Below the pieces are notes generated by a model. That model did not search any database. It had not been told where the DNA came from and worked only from the letters and a program-made list of their open reading frames with translations. A stretch of DNA of 64,000 nt from Candidatus Micrarchaeota archaeon (lineage in GTDB: Archaea; Micrarchaeota; Micrarchaeia; Anstonellales; Bilamarchaeaceae). The first letter of the stretch is position 1. Every line of letters begins with the position of its first letter. This document shows, piece by piece, positions 3,182 through 57,144 of this stretch. The position numbers were made by a program, and so were the translations under genes. The stretch lies in contig JBDRCX010000006.1 in the NCBI GenBank assembly GCA_043821365.1, positions 711,417 to 775,416 of the forward strand. The letters are read 5' to 3'.

Positions 3182-3300
3182 AAATTCATCTCCTTTTATT
3201 TTTTTTCTTTTAATAATAGCCAACCTTTAATAGAAAAAGGTAAACGTGAATTTATTCCAAGATGTTTTTAAAGCTAACTATTATTCCCCTGTCGTTTTTT

Positions 3301-3783: not shown

Positions 3784-4092
3784 ACTTATCCCATCTAAAC
3801 TATTCGTTATATGGTTTTTTATAAATTAGTTTTCTTAACGATTAGAATTTCTAAAAAGAAGGGAGATGGTACACCAATAGGCTCCATCCCGCCTCCCACT
3901 CTTAATCTCCATTGTGGAGGAAAAGACTTTGTACTAAAAAAATTTATATAGCTGAATCTTTGTCTCTAAAAGTCAACATCACAAAATTTCTCTTTTTCCA
4001 ATCAAAACAAAAAGAACTTCTATACCCAGAGCTCTCCCTTTCGAGTGTACAAATAAAATTTCGTTTTTAAATCTTGTCATCGTGATACACAT

Positions 4093-6017: not shown

Positions 6018-6034
6018 ATTTTCATCCTCCTGTT

Positions 6035-6165
6035 GTCCTTTTTAGAAAAAGGACCAAAAATCTGGTTTTGTTAAGTTTTCCTCTTCGAGGAAAAATGATT
6101 TAACTAAAATCCATCGGATTTTTCATCAACCAGTTTTTTATGTCACTTTTTTCCAAAAAAGTGAC
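6035..6165. repeat. Cluster of four palindromic hairpins between the tRNA-Pro-like gene and rps2
   Basis: The hairpins are gtcctttttagaaaaaggac (6035-6054), ttttcctcttcgaggaaaa (~6076-6095), aaaatccatcggatttt (~6108-6124) and gtcacttttttccaaaaaagtgac (6142-6165). Confidence 0.6.
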
Positions 6166-6420
6166 TGGGGCCGCTGAGATATGCTCCTCCCAACCGCAGG
6201 AATTTGTAGTTGAGAAGTTTGAATTTCTTGCGCTTTTTGGTAAAAAGCGCCCAAAAACTTAACTTGCTAATTTTTGCTCGCAAAGCTCGCAAAAATAGTG
6301 TTGCCACCAAAAACCCGATAGGGTTTTTCAACAAAGAATTTTGGAGCGCCTTTTTTCAAAAGGCGCACTCAGATAACAAGCACCCCAAGCTTGCAGGATA
6401 CCAGGTTACCTCACGGCCCC
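6166..6420 (-). tRNA. tRNA-Pro(GGG)-like gene with a ~182-nt insertion in the T-loop; possibly a pseudogene
   Basis: Minus-strand read:
- Acceptor, D-arm and anticodon arm: GGGGCCG TG AGGT AACCTGGTA TCCT G CAAGC TTGGGGT GCTTG TTAT CTGAG.
- Then a ~182-nt hairpin-rich insert.
- Then CTCAG CGGCCCC A.
The acceptor, D-arm, anticodon arm and T-stem all pair. The residual T-loop would be TGCATAT, which lacks the universal U55 and A58. Confidence 0.5.
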
Positions 6421-6604
6421 AAAGAGGGGACGGTTTTGAACTTAAAGTTCAAATCAACTGCCCCTAAACTTCTAGACATTTGGTGTGGAAGGTTTTAATA
6501 TCTATTTTAAACTCGAATGCCAATCTATTTAAATGTTAAAATGTATATTTTATTCTAAGAAATTTGTTTTAAACACAAGTTTCTAACCCACATATGGGGG
6601 TATT

Positions 6605-8976: not shown

Positions 8977-9090
8977 ATCGAAATTCCTATTTCGATTAAG
9001 TAAAAATGTACATGCATTTTTACACTGCGCTTTTTAGAAAAAAGCGCGCAAAAATTTTTTATTTATTTTGGGGTGTGGGGTCTCCCCCAC
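8977..9090. repeat. Four consecutive hairpins filling the rps9-rpoN spacer
   Basis: The hairpins are atcgaaattcctatttcgat (8977-8996), gtaaaaatg-tacatg-catttttac (9000-9023), gcgctttttagaaaaaagcgc + gcaaaaa (9027-9054) and gtggggtctcccccac (9075-9090). Confidence 0.6.
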
Positions 9091-9103: not shown

Positions 9104-9829
9104 TCACCTGTATGATTTTTGGAACCTGGCCCTTGCCTTTGGTCCACGGAACTTCTTTGGTTCAACCCGTCTTGTATCATCAACTATTAATGAACGATCG
9201 ATTGTAATGAATTTTTCCTTAAGGTTCATCTCATCAAAGTATGCTACTAGTGCGTTTGCTATTGCTGTTCTTGCTGCTTGTGCTTGGCCCATCACTCCAC
9301 CGCCATTAACATTGACTGCAATGTCTATGTTATTTGCTTCTGGACCAACGTACTTTATTGGCTCTCTTATTATTTCTCTTATGTAAGAATTGTTAATTGA
9401 TTCAATGTTTCTGCTGTTCAATCGTATTACTCCTTTGCCTTTAGTTATTGTTGCACGTGCTACGCTCTCTTTTCTTTTTCCTCTTGTAACAAAAACTTTT
9501 GTTTCTATTTTTTTCGATGGTTTCTTTCTTTTCTTTTTTGGACTTGGTTTTTTCTCTTCTGTTTTGTGTTCGTGAGTTTCTTTTTTCTCTTCGTGTTTAT
9601 GTTCTACATGGGTGTGTGCCTTTTTCTCAGGTACTTCGTGTTTATGTTCTGTGTGTTTGTGCTCTTCTTTCTTTTCATGCTCCTCATGCTTTTTTTCATG
9701 AACATGTTTATGTTCTACATGAGTGTGCGCTTCCTTCTTTTCATGAGCTTCTTTTTTCTCATGTTTAGTGGTGTGAGTTCCTTCCTTCTTTGTTCTTTTC
9801 TTTTTTCCTTCTTTAGTCATGATCATCAA
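9104..9829 (-). CDS. rps9: Ribosomal protein uS9 with a ~105-aa His/Glu/Lys-rich N-terminal extension
   Basis: The C-terminal ~135 aa (GKRKESVARATI ... GGGVMGQAQAARTAIANAL ... DDTRRVEPKKFRGPKARARFQKSYR) is canonical S9. The N-terminus is HEKK/EHKH repeats. The start overlaps the rpl13 stop. Confidence 0.9.
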   Translation of the reverse strand: MMIMTKEGKKKRTKKEGTHTTKHEKKEAHEKKEAHTHVEHKHVHEKKHEEHEKKEEHKHTEHKHEVPEKKAHTHVEHKHEEKKETHEHKTEEKKPSPKKKRKKPSKKIETKVFVTRGKRKESVARATITKGKGVIRLNSRNIESINNSYIREIIREPIKYVGPEANNIDIAVNVNGGGVMGQAQAARTAIANALVAYFDEMNLKEKFITIDRSLIVDDTRRVEPKKFRGPKARARFQKSYR

Positions 9830-22639: not shown

Positions 22640-22754
22640 TGGACACGGAGGGATTTGAACCCCCAGCCTTCCACAGTTTGGCAAACTAGTTTTGATCAAA
22701 CTTTTACTAAAAGTTTGGCGCCAAGCGGATGCTCTACCGTTGAGCTACGTGCCC
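22640..22754 (-). tRNA. tRNA-Ala(GGC) with a 43-nt canonical-position intron
   Basis: Minus-strand read: GGGCACG TA GCTC AACGGTA GAGC A TCCGC TTGGCG [intron] GTGGA AGGCT GGGGG TTCAAAT CCCTC CGTGTCC A. The G3:U70 alanine identity pair is present. The intron contains the hairpin CAAACTTTTAGTAAAAGTTTG and is bounded by a CCAAAC direct repeat. Confidence 0.85.
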
Positions 22755-22794
22755 GTGCAACTTTTTAGTAAAAAGTTGCTCAAAAATAGTCAAT

Positions 22795-23019
22795 TTAAGA
22801 TGGCGATATAAAAGTTACTGAGTCACCGCGCAACAAAACTGTGCCGACTCCTCTTTTGACTTCACCATTGACCATCTGTTCTGCTTTTTCAAGAACAATG
22901 TTCATGTGTACATCGTATGCTACCATCACGCCTCGGAATTCATTTCCTCCTTTCATACCGATTATGACGGTGTTGTTCAATGAGCTATTCAATACATCAA
23001 ATGGTCTTCTTTCTGGCAT
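22795..23019 (-). CDS. Sm-like archaeal protein (SmAP/LSm)
   Basis: PFDVLNSSLNNTVIIGMKGGNEFRGVMVAYDVHMNIVLE ... LLRGDSVTFISP (Sm1/Sm2 motifs). The ATG at 23019 has GAGGTGA 7 nt upstream. The ORF track start at 23079 is probably too long. Confidence 0.85.
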   Translation of the reverse strand: MPERRPFDVLNSSLNNTVIIGMKGGNEFRGVMVAYDVHMNIVLEKAEQMVNGEVKRGVGTVLLRGDSVTFISPS

Positions 23020-23075
23020 AAAAAATTCACCTCTAAAAATAAACTCTTTTAATCTATCATCATAGGTTTTAAAAG

Positions 23076-23549
23076 TCATTCGTTATTTACAATTGTTTCT
23101 ATTTTTCCTGGTCCTTTGAATATAATTATTCTATCTGCAGTGTTTCTAAGTGCGGCACTGAATGCAACATCAGTTGCAATGATCATAGTTCTTTTGCCCT
23201 TTGCCTTTGCCTTTCTTAAGACGGGTAAATAATCAGTATCTCTGGTCATGAGTGCAATTGTGTCTATATCTTTGTCAATAACATACTCCATTGCTTCAAT
23301 GGCCATAGTAACATCAACATCGCCAGTGGTTATCTCAGTTTGAAAACCTTGATTTACCATAGCCTCAATCAGCTTGTCAGATGCAAACTGATCAAGATAT
23401 ATTTTTGCAACACGGATATTACCAAAACGTGAAATCTCTTTTCTAAGTTCATGGAGATCCACATTGAATGCTTTCCTTAAAATATTTGGACCGTCAACCA
23501 AAAGTGCAATATCTGGTCGTTCCTTTTTTCTTTTTAAAAAATCAAACAT
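23076..23549 (-). CDS. NYN/LabA-like domain protein (predicted RNase)
   Basis: IALLVDGPNI ... IALMTRDTDYLPVLRKAKAKGKR is the LabA/NYN pattern. Confidence 0.8.
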   Translation of the reverse strand: MFDFLKRKKERPDIALLVDGPNILRKAFNVDLHELRKEISRFGNIRVAKIYLDQFASDKLIEAMVNQGFQTEITTGDVDVTMAIEAMEYVIDKDIDTIALMTRDTDYLPVLRKAKAKGKRTMIIATDVAFSAALRNTADRIIIFKGPGKIETIVNNE

Positions 23550-23605
23550 TTAATCTACTCCAGGTGGCAATCGTGTTCGTCGCAACGAACGCGATACATA
23601 TGGAA

Positions 23606-24340
23606 CTATTGTTCCATACTGAAATTAAAAAATTTCATCGCATTTTCGCTAGTTGCATTCGCAACTTTAACAGTTTCTATATTCTTTACTTCTGCAATAT
23701 ACGCAATAGCTTCGCGTATAACTTCCGGTGTTCTACCAACATATGGCGAATCACTTTCCACCAAAAGTCTATTCAGTGGTACAATATTAATAACCTTTCT
23801 ACGCTCCTTCGACCTAAGGTGGGTTATTGATATATACCCACCACTATCTACAATTTTTTTTGCCTGTTCTTCAGAACCACAATAAAAGTGCATTAGTACT
23901 CTCATCTCAGTTGTCATGCTAATGATGTCATCAACAGCATTTTTTGGAAGGTTATTTTCATTAGGATTATTTCTCGAATGTATTACAAGAGGAAGATCAA
24001 ATTCCTTCGCAAGGTCAATCATCTTTTGAAACACGATTTTTTCATTTTCAACGTGTTCGTTTGTTTGTGCCCACTTATAGTCTAAACCAACTTCACCGAT
24101 TGCATTTGGTTTGTTATTTCTAATAAATTCCACCCACTCGTCTACTTTTGTTATTCCCTCCTTTACAGTACTCTGCGGTGCAATCCCCAATATGAAAGGA
24201 TAATTATGCTCCTTTGCAAAATCAACTACTTTTTTGTTTGCGCCATGCGAGTATCCTGCAACTACTGGGTAAATATCTGGAGGCAGAACATAGTCTTTTT
24301 TCATTTCAAAAAGATGGGTATGTGAGTCCACAAGTTTCAT
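23606..24340 (-). CDS. tatD: TatD-family metal-dependent hydrolase/DNase
   Basis: MKLVDSHTHL ... GEVGLDY ... VIHSR ... ESDSPY. Confidence 0.85.
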   Translation of the reverse strand: MKLVDSHTHLFEMKKDYVLPPDIYPVVAGYSHGANKKVVDFAKEHNYPFILGIAPQSTVKEGITKVDEWVEFIRNNKPNAIGEVGLDYKWAQTNEHVENEKIVFQKMIDLAKEFDLPLVIHSRNNPNENNLPKNAVDDIISMTTEMRVLMHFYCGSEEQAKKIVDSGGYISITHLRSKERRKVINIVPLNRLLVESDSPYVGRTPEVIREAIAYIAEVKNIETVKVANATSENAMKFFNFSMEQ

Positions 24341-38322: not shown

Positions 38323-38436
38323 TTATCTTGAACGTTTCGACGTTCAAGGACATGTCCAAAAATAGGAAGGACAAATTATTGAAATTTGTCCTGTTTGTAA
38401 CTTATCAAATTTACAATACAATTAAAAAATAAAAAA

Positions 38437-42354: not shown

Positions 42355-42582
42355 GCCCCTGTAGCGCAGTCCGCTTTTTAGGAAAAAGCTTGGCAAAAAC
42401 TGGTTGTTGTTTTTGTAGTTTTCTAATAAAAAGCAGGTGTTAAGGTAGCGCGCGTCCTTGGTATCGCACCTTTTTTCAAAAAGGTGCGCCAAAAACTTTT
42501 GTAAATAGTGACCCAGTTTTGGGCCGCCTTTTACCAAAAGGCGGAGAGGACGAGGCCGCGAGTTCAATTCTCGCCGGGGGCT
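42355..42582 (+). tRNA. tRNA-Thr(GGU) with two introns (D-loop ~70 nt, canonical 37/38 position 83 nt)
   Basis: Read: GCCCCTG TA GCGC AGT [42371-42440] TAAGGTA GCGC G CGTCC TTGGTA [42464-42546] A GGACG AGGCC GCGAG TTCAATT CTCGC CGGGGGC T. The exons sum to 75 nt and all four stems pair. Confidence 0.75.
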
Positions 42583-43098: not shown

Positions 43099-43314
43099 TT
43101 GAACCTGCTTGATGTGAAAGAAGGAATAGAATTATCTGTAAAAAAAGTTGATGGGGGTCAGGCTCTCTCACTTCGATTAAGTGAGCTTGGAATCTTTGAA
43201 GGTTCAAAGATCAAAGTTCTGAAAAACAAAAGGGGTCCAGTTATCTTGTGTGTCTTCGGATCAACACTTGCAATTGGAAGAGGCCAGGCAAAAAAGATAG
43301 AGGTAAGCAAATGA
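43099..43314 (+). CDS. feoA: Ferrous iron transport protein A
   Basis: FeoA SH3-like pattern LSLRLSELGIFEGSKIKVL. TTG start with AGGTG upstream. Confidence 0.85.
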   Translation: MNLLDVKEGIELSVKKVDGGQALSLRLSELGIFEGSKIKVLKNKRGPVILCVFGSTLAIGRGQAKKIEVSK

Positions 43315-51582: not shown

Positions 51583-51610
51583 TTTTTATCTAATTATAAA
51601 AGGAGATTCA

Positions 51611-51634
51611 AAAAGAACCTTGGTTCTTTTTATT
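51611..51634. terminator. Bidirectional hairpin aaaaaGAACCttGGTTCttttt
   Basis: Near-copy of the 1886-1908 element. Lies between aclA (+) and a small minus-strand ORF. Confidence 0.5.
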
Positions 51635-51770: not shown

Positions 51771-51885
51771 GGTTTAACACCTCATAAATTATTAAGTAAA
51801 AATGCACGGCATTTTTACACTTCAATTACTGGCCAAGAGTACTATTTCAATTACATTTAAAACATTTTCTAACCTGTTTGTTAGT

Positions 51886-52590
51886 ATGAGAGGCATTTTC
51901 GCTATTCTGGTTTTGGTTGTTTTATTCGGATGTTTAGTTCAGGAACCGTCAGTTCCACCTTCTGTACCTAACTCTACTATTCAACCTCCGGTACAGCAAG
52001 TAAATAATTCTCCAGCACAACTAACGTGCGAAGAATACTGTTATTCTGCAATTACTCCATCTTGTGATGGCAATTGGTCAATTAGCGGTGTTTATCCTAA
52101 TTGCAATTGTAATTTCGATTGTGTTGTTATATCAAATACAACTGAACCAAATATTACTGAACCAATTGAAGTGCCAGAAGCAAATTTTTCAGAACTTCTT
52201 GATATTGCTCTAGATAAAATAAGTGATGGATTTTATCTAAATCACAGCGGAACTTTTACTGAGAATAAATACACTTGGAGGAGAATGATTACCGATGGCA
52301 CAATCATTGATACAAGTACTCCCGAAGTTAAATTTAATGGAGTTTCAATGGATTCACTTCAATCATCAGGTTATTTCATTTTCCATGGTGATGATCTAAA
52401 AGAAGTTTATGGGGTTGCAATTTTCAATGATGAAGATCCATTTGAAGAATATGGTATTAATGATGGATTTGATGTTTATTATGTGCCAAAATTAATACAG
52501 AGAACTCTAATTGATTGTACTGTTTATAATAAAGAAAATCCGACTACTTTAGTAGTCGCATACTACTTCAAATGTGAAAATGAAGATTAA
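51886..52590 (+). CDS. Putative lipoprotein with an N-terminal Cys-rich segment
   Basis: MRGIFAILVLVVLFGC is lipobox-like. A Pro/Gln linker is followed by CEEYCYSAITPSCDGNWSISGVYPNCNCNFDC. The ORF track start at 51802 is unlikely. Confidence 0.6.
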   Translation: MRGIFAILVLVVLFGCLVQEPSVPPSVPNSTIQPPVQQVNNSPAQLTCEEYCYSAITPSCDGNWSISGVYPNCNCNFDCVVISNTTEPNITEPIEVPEANFSELLDIALDKISDGFYLNHSGTFTENKYTWRRMITDGTIIDTSTPEVKFNGVSMDSLQSSGYFIFHGDDLKEVYGVAIFNDEDPFEEYGINDGFDVYYVPKLIQRTLIDCTVYNKENPTTLVVAYYFKCENED

Positions 52591-53591: not shown

Positions 53592-53791
53592 CGCCCCAAC
53601 CGCGATTTGAACGCGGACTACAACCTTTCCTCCCCGAACCTTTTACAATCTTGAGGAAAACTATATTAAAAGGTCCGATCCAAAACAAATTATCAAAAAC
53701 AATCATCGTTTTACGACAATAGGTTCCAGTTCCATTCTTCCTAAAAACGGGGTCGCAGGGTCGTGTCATATCCAGGTTAGACTATTGGAGC
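53592..53791 (-). tRNA. tRNA-Arg(GCG) with a 126-nt canonical-position intron
   Basis: Minus-strand read: GCTCCAA TA GTCT AACCTGGATA TGAC A CGACC CTGCGA [126 nt] . GGTTG TAGT CCGCG TTCAAAT CGCGG TTGGGGC G. The intron ends pair (CCCCG...CGGGG). Confidence 0.8.
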
Positions 53792-56896: not shown

Positions 56897-56978
56897 CTCT
56901 CAAACTCTTTTGGAGGTTAGGTTGTCCTTGAAAGCGGACGCTTTCAAGACAGTAAAAATTATTTTCTAATTTTTACAC

Positions 56979-56993
56979 GCAGGGGTGGCAGAG
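56979..56993 (+). other. Orphan 15-nt copy of the tRNA-Leu 5' end (GCAGGGGTGGCAGAG)
   Basis: Identical to 57061-57075 and located 67 nt upstream of the intact gene. Followed by the hairpin TTGAACAAGTTCAA. Confidence 0.6.
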
Positions 56994-57060
56994 TTGTTTT
57001 GAACAAGTTCAAAGCCTCCGCCACATTCATTCGGTTATTCGACTGAAATAACTTTCATAA

Positions 57061-57144
57061 GCAGGGGTGGCAGAGCGGTCAAATGCGCCAGCTTGAGGGG
57101 CTGGTGGGTTAGTCCCTTCGAGTGTTCGAATCACTTCCCCTGCA
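57061..57144 (+). tRNA. tRNA-Leu(GAG), class II, intron-less
   Basis: GCAGGGG TG GCA GAGCGGTCAAA TGC G CCAGC TTGAGGG GCTGG [15-nt variable arm] GAGTG TTCGAAT CACTT CCCCTGC A. Confidence 0.9.

Follow-up and report, generated by a model that had tools for sequence, protein, structure and literature searches.

A recurrent hairpin-plus-tail module at the borders of interrupted tRNA genes in Micrarchaeota

The stretch of DNA considered here, 64,000 nucleotides on contig JBDRCX010000006.1 of a Candidatus Micrarchaeota archaeon (in the following, the window; G+C about 35%), carries ten copies of a short palindromic hairpin, in which a core is followed by a run of T, a small loop, a run of A and the core complement, often with an A-rich tail on one side. 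These copies lie mainly in the introns and at the ends of tRNA genes, and at a well-sampled intron, intron A of tRNA-Pro(GGG), the hairpin covaries with two alternative partners. Weighing all observations, we lean towards regarding the module as a conserved RNA folding unit of Micrarchaeota pre-tRNAs, and not as a free-standing gene or a terminator. As far as can be read from the sequence, it most likely supplies a helix which presents the splice sites to the splicing enzyme.

The hairpin module and its position at RNA boundaries

An initial annotation, made from the letters of the window, had listed ten palindromic hairpins, and all ten are present as perfect stems of 7-11 bp. When the architecture was counted by rule (core of at least 3 nt with at least two G/C, T4-8, loop of 0-6 nt, A4-8, core complement), nine occurrences were found in the window as compared to a mean of 0.46 and a maximum of 3 in 200 dinucleotide-preserving shuffles, which is far from the frequency of random palindromes; the copy at 42373 falls outside this count, its GC core being only 2 nt long. 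The mirror architecture, with the A-run first, occurs once in the window. Relatives were obtained as 64 loci from a scan of species-representative genomes with the S2 protein as query (L-numbers, L001 being the closest relative); nearly all are labelled Micrarchaeota or Micrarchaeia, the best S2 match shows 92% identity, and their G+C content ranges from 33 to 59%. Among them, 33 hairpins with the T-run first stand against five with the A-run first.

The module is strand-oriented, with the purine loop (AGG/AGT/GG) and a C-A(4-6)-C tail on one strand. Of 61 hairpins from the window and the 64 related loci, 39 carry a tail of the form N0-4-C-A3-7 on exactly one side, the background being 0.03 per side, and the tail suspected from the window by eye is thereby borne out. 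Purine-type loops (AGG, AGT, GG, AG, GGT, G, GT or GGG) were found in 36 of these 39 tail-oriented copies. The GC-rich cores that had been described hold for most copies, while two cores are AT-rich (CAAAC and GCAAC) and one is merely GC. A covariance model of hairpin and tail, built from the hand-regularised set A4 and run unfiltered on both strands of the window, returned exactly ten matches (24-44 bits, E <= 0.006), which are the ten listed copies; its training set included four window copies, and in six training rows the linker had been changed by one nucleotide to keep the register. The next matches are reverse-strand readings of the same hairpins (up to 19.6 bits), followed by noise (up to 14 bits). 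A MAFFT alignment of all copies (A1) turned out to be out of structural register, and no model was built on it.

An intron search combined with reading by hand brings the tRNA genes of the window to five (Pro(GGG), Ala(GGC), Thr(GGU), Cys(GCA) and Leu(GAG)), of which four are interrupted; ARAGORN and Rfam in standard use miss three of the five. Once the inserts had been removed in silico, ARAGORN drew canonical cloverleaves for Pro(GGG), Thr(GGU), Ala(GGC) and Cys(GCA), which upholds the proposed tRNA-Pro, tRNA-Thr and tRNA-Ala hosts and adds Cys to them, and Pfam confirmed rps2, S9 and RpoN at the remaining locations. Eight of the ten copies lie inside a pre-tRNA or within 30 nt of it, a region making up 15% of the noncoding DNA (binomial P = 8e-6), so that the copies do cluster at RNA genes within the window. 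Half of the copies are antisense to their host transcript, and sense as well as antisense copies occur in tRNA introns, as had been noticed from the start. What unites the two orientations is a bracket rule followed by nine of the ten copies: the hairpin abuts a functional RNA, the gap being 0-2 nt at a tRNA end, 1 nt on the downstream side of a 5' splice site and 2-6 nt on the upstream side of a 3' splice site, and its tail is directed into the RNA to be removed or into the spacer.

The gene for tRNA-Pro(GGG) (6166..6420, minus strand) consists of exon 1 (6368-6420), intron A at position 53/54 (144 nt, 6224-6367), the micro-exon TTCAA (6219-6223), intron B (38 nt, 6181-6218) and exon 3 (6166-6180). 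Copy 4 (6338..6367, minus strand; GCGCC-T4-G-A6-GGCGC with a TCCAAAA tail, 29.7 bits), the first hairpin of intron A (hpA), is sense and starts 1 nt past the 5' splice site behind exon 1. The second one (hpB), copy 3 (6229..6258, plus strand; GCGC-T5-GGT-A5-GCGC with a CCAAAAAC tail, 39.9 bits), is antisense and ends 6 nt ahead of the micro-exon; on the RNA strand, AAGA (H2', the 3' strand of the central splice-site helix H2) and then AA|T (the 3' splice bulge) come after its 3' arm, the 6 nt being H2' plus two bulge nucleotides. Downstream, between tRNA-Pro and rps2, sits a composite element (6035..6165, minus strand) with the layout hpA-tail...tail'-hpB, which is also found in L003, L006, L012 and L030; its tails pair with each other (AAAAAACUGGUU with AACCAGAUUUUU) and enclose two inner hairpins. 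It is formed by copy 2 (6134..6165, minus strand; GTCAC-T6-GG-A6-GTGAC with a ATAAAAAAC tail, 25.7 bits), which is sense and begins 0 nt past the tRNA-Pro discriminator base, and copy 1 (6034..6061, plus strand; GTCC-T5-AG-A5-GGAC with a CAAAAA tail, 24.3 bits), which is antisense to the minus-strand transcript and whose hairpin ends 3 nt before the rps2 Shine-Dalgarno sequence AGGAGG.

In tRNA-Ala(GGC) (22640..22754, minus strand; exon 1 22719-22754, exon 2 22640-22675) a 43-nt intron at 37/38 (22676-22718) contains copy 6 (22689..22718, minus strand; CAAAC-T4-AGT-A4-GTTTG with a ATCAAAAC tail, 27.5 bits), sense and starting 1 nt past the 5' splice site. The antisense copy 7 (22757..22787, plus strand; 44.2 bits) lies between the stop codon of the Sm-like (LSm) gene (22795) and the tRNA-Ala 5' end, its hairpin ending 2 nt before position +1. 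The gene for tRNA-Thr(GGU) (42355..42582, plus strand) is split into exon 1 (42355-42372), a D-loop intron 1 of 71 nt (42373-42443) whose exact borders are inferred from the cloverleaf only, exon 2 (42444-42463), intron 2 at 37/38 (83 nt, 42464-42546) and exon 3 (42547-42582). Copy 8 (42367..42400, plus strand; GC-T5-AGG-A5-GC with a TTGGCAAAAAC tail, 32.7 bits) is sense, its hairpin starting on the first nucleotide of intron 1, 0 nt after exon 1; copy 9 (42465..42496, plus strand; CGCACC-T6-C-A5-GGTGCG with a CCAAAAAC tail, 32.8 bits) is sense and starts 1 nt past the 5' splice site of intron 2; copy 10 (42516..42545, minus strand; CCGCC-T4-GGT-A4-GGCGG with a CCCAAAAC tail, 35.8 bits) is antisense, and its hairpin on the RNA strand ends 2 nt before the 3' splice site and exon 3. 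The sole exception to the bracket rule is copy 5 in the rps9-rpoN spacer (9026..9055, plus strand; GCGC-T5-AG-A6-GCGC with a GCAAAAA tail, 38.5 bits), which is antisense to the operon and adjoins no known RNA end.

The covariance model reproduces the original catalogue of ten, in which a degenerate relative in tRNA-Cys(GCA) (53592..53791, minus strand) was not listed. The 126-nt intron of this gene, with approximate splice borders, follows the module plan in degenerate form, as CCCCG-T5-AGG..., GTTTTGG, GGACC-T4-(23-nt loop)-A4-GGTTC and CGGGG. A canonical Cys(GCA) anticodon loop requires the intron to lie inside the anticodon, after position 35; alternative borders lead to a GCG anticodon.

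The same placement is seen in the relatives, where 35 of 38 covariance-model matches in 979 kb fall in the tRNA-Pro intron or its rps2 spacer, the plus-strand matches of this locus lying on the 5' side and the minus-strand matches on the 3' side. Comparisons across species centre on tRNA-Pro; an ARAGORN intron search on the 64 relatives added few tRNAs, and an Ala-like fragment in L002, considered as a tRNA-Ala orthologue, proved not to be a tRNA.

Folding of tRNA-Pro intron A across relatives

In most of the 64 genomes rps2 is preceded by tRNA-Pro, whose genes range from uninterrupted ones of 73 nt, found in some relatives, through those with the T-loop intron B alone (about 37 nt, with the conserved loop ACAAAYACCUGCG) to the most common form, in which intron A at 53/54 and intron B are separated by the 5-nt micro-exon UUCAA. 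The loop of intron B (window 6181-6218, minus strand) is near-invariant in about 35 orthologous loci, and its stem covaries. Intron A exists in minimal forms of 36-38 nt (in L043, a single long U-run/A-run hairpin, then CAGAAG), in one-module forms of 48-59 nt (hairpin and tail, with the 3' arm occurring once more) and in two-module forms of 68-144 nt with a complete inverted second module (L042, L028, L026, L003, L001 and the window). The proposal that the hairpin builds or expands tRNA introns holds in so far as the length of intron A rises with module number. At the same intron A position the same hairpin is present in about 25-30 related genomes of 35-59% G+C, its core covarying.

The central helix of the bulge-helix-bulge (BHB) splice-site motif of intron A, UCUG/CAGA (a 4-bp H2), is intact in 29 of 30 species, with bulges of 3 nt, and L031 shows a compensatory UCCC/GGGA form. 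RNAalifold on 16 orthologues selects the canonical BHB, with double changes at six pairs; the inner helix is formed between the hairpin 5' arm including the loop purines AG and a distal CU-A5-core' directly 5' of CAGA. Beginning one nucleotide past the 5' cleavage site, this 5' arm (core, U-run and first loop purines) has two conserved and mutually exclusive partners, namely the adjacent A-run arm, with which it makes the local hairpin, and the distal arm copy, with which it makes h', the inner helix of a strict hBHBh' motif. For the long-range helix, pairing reaches 94.1%, covariation amounts to 0.272 vs 0.164 in shuffles (0/500 reach the observed value), and pairing collapses when the partners are slid against each other. 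The local hairpin is at least 89.8% paired, a lower bound as it is out of register in a few rows of alignment A3 (loops of 2 or 4 nt), and shows a covariation of 0.211 vs 0.116 (0/500) with four pairs changed on both sides. Stem pairs 2-4 each occur as three to four Watson-Crick types in 20 species, and the pair beside the U-run is always C-G. On the transcribed strand, five G-U wobble pairs are opposed by one A-C, which indicates selection at the RNA level. Under constrained folding the BHB structure is preferred by 17 of 25 species (median -17.6 vs -11.1 kcal/mol), and in two-module introns, the one of the window included, alternative folds lie within about 2-4 kcal/mol. The tail forms the loop of a small core'-tail-core hairpin in the BHB fold, and in two-module introns it pairs with the inverted tail.

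Within the window, the tRNA-Ala intron offers a canonical BHB (H2 UUGG/CCAA, bulges CG|C and AC|U, inner helix CAAACU/AGUUUG), and another one can be drawn for Pro intron B (GUUC/GAGC, bulges AA|A and AU|A). If the module indeed acts as a folding unit, it would provide a helix beside the splice-site bulge, and its inverted twin would do likewise on the 3' side, so that a bracketed intron or spacer would fold into an A/U-rich domain of its own. Such a domain could set the splice-site bulges beside a rigid helix for a broad-specificity epsilon2 splicing endonuclease and may stop the long insert from forming wrong pairs with the tRNA body, which is rich in G+C. As the first to be transcribed, the local hairpin may hold co-transcriptionally and later be swapped for the long-range helix. 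At the 5' and 3' ends of a tRNA the same bracket would help RNase P and RNase Z, or insulate the tRNA from the neighbouring mRNA, and local inverted or tandem duplication of arm-plus-tail units might give rise to new copies and longer introns.

Several observations speak against this reading. For Thr intron 1, Thr intron 2 and the Cys intron no convincing canonical BHB could be drawn; they offer half-motifs of helix, 3-nt bulge and helix, with splice borders taken from the cloverleaf. Nor was a BHB found for the copies outside introns, i.e. in the tRNA-Pro trailer, the rps2 leader, the LSm/tRNA-Ala junction, the rps9/rpoN spacer and behind a small RNA in L002 and L031, and for this reason their role rests on analogy: by analogy, they would share the function of the intronic copies. 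Intron A is found without the module in L029, L035 and L046, so the module is dispensable for an intron at 53/54. The two 3' arms duplicate each other, and the dual covariation may partly reflect repeated duplication. Finally, the U5/A5 tracts and C-A5-C are strictly kept even at 55-59% G+C, beyond the needs of a generic helix.

The closest known system is that of ARMAN-2 (Ca. Micrarchaeum acidiphilum), in which 56% of the tRNA genes are disrupted and pre-tRNA-Pro(GGG) contains introns at 53/54 and 59/60 with strict BHB motifs (PMC3239211). Its epsilon2 endonuclease cleaves BHB and bulge-helix-loop substrates (PMC3239211; PMC12397907), and it is from ARMAN-2 that a broad-specificity endonuclease is known for the phylum (PMC3239211; Fujishima et al. 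2011). Among the 66 window open reading frames (ORFs) scanned with Pfam, a splicing endonuclease was not found. As far as the excerpts of these accounts go, the likeness is close: same phylum, same tRNA, a strict hBHBh', introns at 53/54 and 58/59 or 59/60, and a micro-exon of 5-6 nt. What the excerpted ARMAN-2 accounts (PMC3239211, PMC12397907) do not describe is a recurrent U-run/A-run hairpin with an A-rich tail, dual partners and an inverted twin, the spread of such a module to other introns and tRNA flanks, or an intron series of 36-144 nt. What hosts the module, namely BHB introns and, in tRNA-Pro(GGG), a double T-loop intron, is already known; new, as far as the searchable literature shows, are the oriented hairpin-plus-tail, the bracket rule, the dual pairing and the intron length series.

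Further roles for the module in tRNA expression were considered and discarded. A promoter, with T5-N-A5 as a symmetric TATA box and the tail as proximal element, would have the hairpin centre 14 nt from tRNA-Ala +1, and at the rps2 copy, which is upstream of the Shine-Dalgarno sequence, the transcription start would not fit. Pairing of the tail CCAA, as H2', with UUGG (positions 32-35) of GGN-anticodon tRNAs suits Thr intron 2 and the extreme end of the Ala intron; the idea fails for Pro intron A, whose H2 is UCUG, and in relatives with a AUCAAAAAC tail. A 'split tRNA in cis', each exon having its own promoter and terminator, was dropped since no convincing TATA boxes were seen within the introns and T5 runs are not terminators here, and a U.A-U triple helix joining the 5' U-tail of antisense copies to their stem would have to cross a 4-5 bp core with a 2-nt linker, an implausible geometry.

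Mobility, 3'-end formation and protein binding as possible alternatives

The initial annotation had suggested a small proliferating, MITE-like (miniature inverted-repeat transposable element) hairpin. In its general form, this explanation sees the hairpin-plus-tail of about 29 nt as a DNA element resembling REP/REPIN (repetitive extragenic palindromes) or MITEs, or as a transposing BHB-intron cassette, which inserts as inverted pairs and whose inserts in tRNA genes survive because they are spliceable; we regard it as unlikely. The inverted-pair layout with inward tails does resemble terminal inverted repeats, and inverted doublets are found in Pro intron A, Thr intron 2 and the tRNA-Pro/rps2 spacer as well as in L001, L003, L026, L028, L030 and L042. 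The module occupies several tRNAs and positions (D-loop, 37/38, 53/54), and among metagenome contigs it is found in the Ser(GGA) tRNA of L066 and, at 53/54, in another tRNA of L125. Copies also come and go between relatives: copy 5 of the rps9/rpoN spacer is missing from L001, in L002 and L031 but not in the window a small RNA is followed by about 85 nt of inserted sequence that includes the module, L037 and L043 differ by an 18-nt arm-plus-tail segment, and L062 has a GCGC-type hairpin within an AAAC-type context, as if swapped as a unit.

Opposed to this are the tRNA-Pro copy itself, which is orthologous in the 25-30 genomes mentioned above with its stem kept by compensatory substitution, and the extent of the shared sequence, which between window copies ends with the module at 25-29 nt and is at most 90% identical (best pair 26/29); ten copies occur per 64 kb, and none are near-identical at length. 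Direct repeats flank no copy in the window, so there is no sign of target-site duplications, and intron A has complementary flanks (UCUG/CAGA) in place of duplicated ones. No transposase, RAYT/IS200-type included, was detected among the 66 ORFs of the 64-kb window, and copies away from tRNA loci are rare (3 of 38 matches in the 979 kb). With deep orthology and covariation on the one side and neither target duplications nor a transposase in the window on the other, a currently proliferating MITE-like element was not sustained. Single copies may have originated by duplication or insertion.

Compared to REP/REPIN elements, also described as bacterial interspersed mosaic elements (BIME), the module is alike in being a short imperfect palindrome with a conserved short flank, which occurs singly or in inverted pairs foldable into one long hairpin, and in its extragenic position in transcribed spacers with variation between relatives. 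It differs from them in that there are no hundreds of near-identical copies and no RAYT-type transposase in the window, that the copies concentrate in tRNA introns and flanks, and that the stem covaries at an orthologous site. Thermoproteales reportedly possess families of sequence-related tRNA introns for which a spread by transposition has been proposed (cited in PMC3239211 as its reference 29). The likeness lies in related intron sequences that reportedly recur within one genome in several tRNA genes and at varying positions; unlike there, only the 25-29 nt module is shared here and not whole introns, and at least one copy is ancient and orthologous.

A bolder version, which we consider quite unlikely, takes the hairpin-plus-tail as the terminal repeat of a self-propagating palindromic cassette which makes or enlarges BHB introns and tRNA-flanking spacers in Micrarchaeota, an RNA-gene-targeted counterpart of REPINs domesticated as a bistable splice-site clamp. 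Were this true, the exchange between the local hairpin and the long-range helix h' could order or gate the removal of multiple introns, and two-module introns, once excised, would exist as circular RNAs of 70-150 nt with a rod shape.

Another possibility is that the hairpin terminates transcription or forms 3' ends after stable-RNA segments, similar to the sites of the giant-virus 'hairpin rule' which are cut by an RNase III-type enzyme. Sense copies do stand directly after tRNA-Pro, after the small RNA of L002 and L031 and after 5' exon ends, and the same motif marks gene ends in metagenome-assembled genomes (MAGs) of giant viruses and in GC-rich bacterial contigs. Within the window, however, the module lies within 60 nt downstream of only 2 of 66 protein genes, which also shows that the hairpins are not simple terminators at all gene ends; other gene ends bear different palindromes, A5-core-loop-core-T5 and CTTGAA..TTCAAG. 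Since 123 T5-8 runs are found within the 56 kb of coding sense strand, a T5 run can be no efficient terminator here. Half of the copies run antisense to their host transcript, termination within each intron would cut the tRNA short, and the tRNA-Pro/rps2 spacer measures 17-70 nt in most relatives, with a Shine-Dalgarno sequence and no room for a promoter, implying read-through from tRNA-Pro to rps2. A 3'-end signal is therefore, in our estimation, very unlikely. Terminator arrays in the antisense direction (GTTTTTG repeats) were rejected too, the gene downstream in L002 being co-oriented so that nothing is to be terminated.

Palindromic mRNA 3'-end signals obeying the 'hairpin rule' are known from Mimiviridae (PMC4402537). 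A scan of viral contigs yielded 76 stretches (L185-L260), mostly giant-virus MAGs (GVMAG-...), in which the motif reads GCGC-T5-AG(G)-A5-GCGC-(G/C)CAAAA with loops AG or AGG and often overlaps the stop codon or follows it by 0-4 nt; an ORF stop lies upstream within -12 to +60 nt in 54 of 92 copies, the mode being 0-4 nt. One of these genomes, GVMAG-M-3300023184-88, has at least ten copies of the gene-end hairpin. Metagenome contigs, scanned for GCGC-T5-N1-4-A5-GCGC-N0-3-CAAAA, gave at least 120 stretches. Among the matches listed, the hosts are mostly unrelated (GC-rich bacteria, giant viruses), two clear tRNA-intron matches were found (L066 and L125), and the AT-rich contigs are largely those of giant viruses (EsV-1-7 repeats, XRN exonuclease, eukaryote-type ubiquitin and marker domains of nucleocytoplasmic large DNA viruses, NCLDV). 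The giant-virus motif is also present in L070, L080, L104, L111, L124, L153, L176 and L183, and in L120, L153 and L183 the 3' arm and tail are repeated in tandem downstream. Most of the matches listed come from contigs of 58-69% G+C with a near-invariant longer element, and in 52 of 106 copies listed from GC-rich contigs a stop codon lies 0-29 nt upstream. This GC-rich element (about 100 loci among L065-L184, e.g. L085, L116, L086, L100) reads (A/G)AAGNAAGNA-GCGCT5-6GA6-7GCGC-GCAAAAAACTTTTG, followed by one of several GC-rich stem-loops; it is high-copy, with about one copy per 2-3 kb just past stop codons, and in L100 one copy lies between the two tRNAs of a bacterial 16S-23S spacer (rRNA operon).

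As metagenome and viral contigs carry the same motif, the compact palindrome is not unique to Micrarchaeota, which leaves 3'-end formation among the alternatives. With regard to the excerpted account of the 'hairpin rule', the likeness consists in an identical motif directly after stop codons in giant-virus MAGs, and the difference in that the window module is not at ORF ends and neither polyadenylation nor an RNase III step is implied. The likeness of the module to the giant-virus hairpin is most likely convergent.

The other suggestion of the initial annotation, a dedicated protein- or RNA-recognition hairpin, comes closer to the evidence than its mobile element. Taken literally, the hairpin (U5/A5 stem and C-A5-C tail, or G-U5-G on the other strand) would be a candidate site for a dedicated RNA-binding protein, e.g. 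the Sm-like protein encoded next to tRNA-Ala, which would act as a chaperone or regulator of pre-tRNA and r-protein transcripts. In sequence, U-run, A-run, loop purines and tail are kept even at 55-59% G+C, with only the core covarying, the RNA of antisense copies has an Sm-site-like AUUUUUGA or GUUUUUGG immediately 5' of the hairpin, and one antisense copy lies 15 nt past the LSm gene. The loop purines, though, are accounted for by their pairing with the distal CU, and both orientations occur within one transcript; because of these two orientations, a single-strand motif would be displayed by only half of the copies. We deem a protein-binding site highly improbable, and keep to the RNA folding unit of pre-tRNAs as the preferred reading.

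Gene context, neighbouring elements and biological meaning

Archaeal ribosomal proteins (S2, S9, L13, L18e, S13, S4 and S11) are encoded in the window, along with RpoN, an RpoD-like subunit, aEF-1alpha, the Sm-like protein, SMC and Hjc. Directly upstream of tRNA-Ala and on the same strand runs a set of RNA-metabolism genes (22795-24340, minus strand) for a TatD-like nuclease, an NYN-domain ribonuclease and the Sm-like protein, and the LSm stop codon is separated from tRNA-Ala by a 40-nt spacer only, with the module inside. The S9 ORF (9104-9829, minus strand), if read from its first start codon, encodes about 110 additional N-terminal residues, among which His, Lys and Glu are frequent (...HEKKEAHEKKEAHTHVEHKH...); the S9 domain matched by Pfam spans residues 117-241 only. 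Over the window, Rfam gave only two tRNA matches at gathering score and left the hairpin module unmatched, and over 18 AT-rich module-bearing loci it gave zero matches at that score.

A candidate small RNA gene in the window (3858-3950, minus strand) starts with a TATA box (TATATAAA, 3943-3950), followed by an RNA of about 65 nt whose end is made of a long hairpin (GUGGGAGGCGGGAUGGAGCC...ACCAUCUCCC) plus a T5 run. Conserved in L002 (2250-2320), L004 (about 12290), L005, L013 and L031 (5840-5880), the candidate gene had no Rfam match at E <= 0.3. In L002 and L031 this small RNA is followed by the module and an array of CCAAAAAC-N15-20 units. A hairpin of the form ACC-U5-CU-A4-GGU (window 3223-3241, minus strand) lies about 25 nt downstream of a TATA box with its B recognition element (BRE/TATA, GAAACCTTTAAAAATA), precedes the aEF-1alpha start by about 45-60 nt, and is probably located at the extreme 5' end of the aEF-1alpha mRNA; it is conserved in L004 (12409), L005 (4510), L007 (12496), L013 (12426), L019 (12922) and L028 (13801).

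Other repeats of the window are of different build. The palindrome GTAAAAAT-N7-9-ATTTTTAC occurs in three copies, one beside module copy 5 (9000-9023), one over the start of ORF 51802-52590 (51796-51818) and one about 85 nt upstream of tRNA-Leu (56952-56976), and judged by its sequence it could be a regulator-binding site. A 34-nt sequence, AAAAGGAGATT(A/C)-AAAAAG(G/A)ACC-TT-GGT(C/T)CTTTTT, is found twice at gene ends (1875-1908 and 51598-51631) and is shaped as a bidirectional terminator (A5-core-loop-core-T5). Hairpins of the (C)TTGAA...TTCAA(G) family (38327-38348, 56927-56948, 43192-43211 and 6435-6453) closely follow protein genes, and one also stands immediately ahead of tRNA-Pro. A second copy of the 15 nt that open tRNA-Leu (GCAGGGGTGGCAGAG) lies 80 nt upstream of the gene (56981-56995 vs 57061-57075); it could be left over from an integration event or from an earlier, disrupted copy of the gene.

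The findings address the open question of how archaeal tRNA introns originated, shifted to non-canonical positions and grew, in the very lineage in which the broad-specificity epsilon2 endonuclease was found. A single orthologous site provides a graded natural series from no intron through the 36-38 nt minimal form and one module to two inverted modules of up to 144 nt. With this series and the crystallised enzyme, the RNA features needed by the endonuclease become testable in vitro, as does the idea of a transient hairpin guiding the fold of multi-intron pre-tRNAs. The module furthermore gives a concrete annotation signature for the heavily disrupted tRNA genes of DPANN genomes. If it is mobile, it would represent a new class of archaeal repeat; if it is not, it would constitute a structural rule within a known system.

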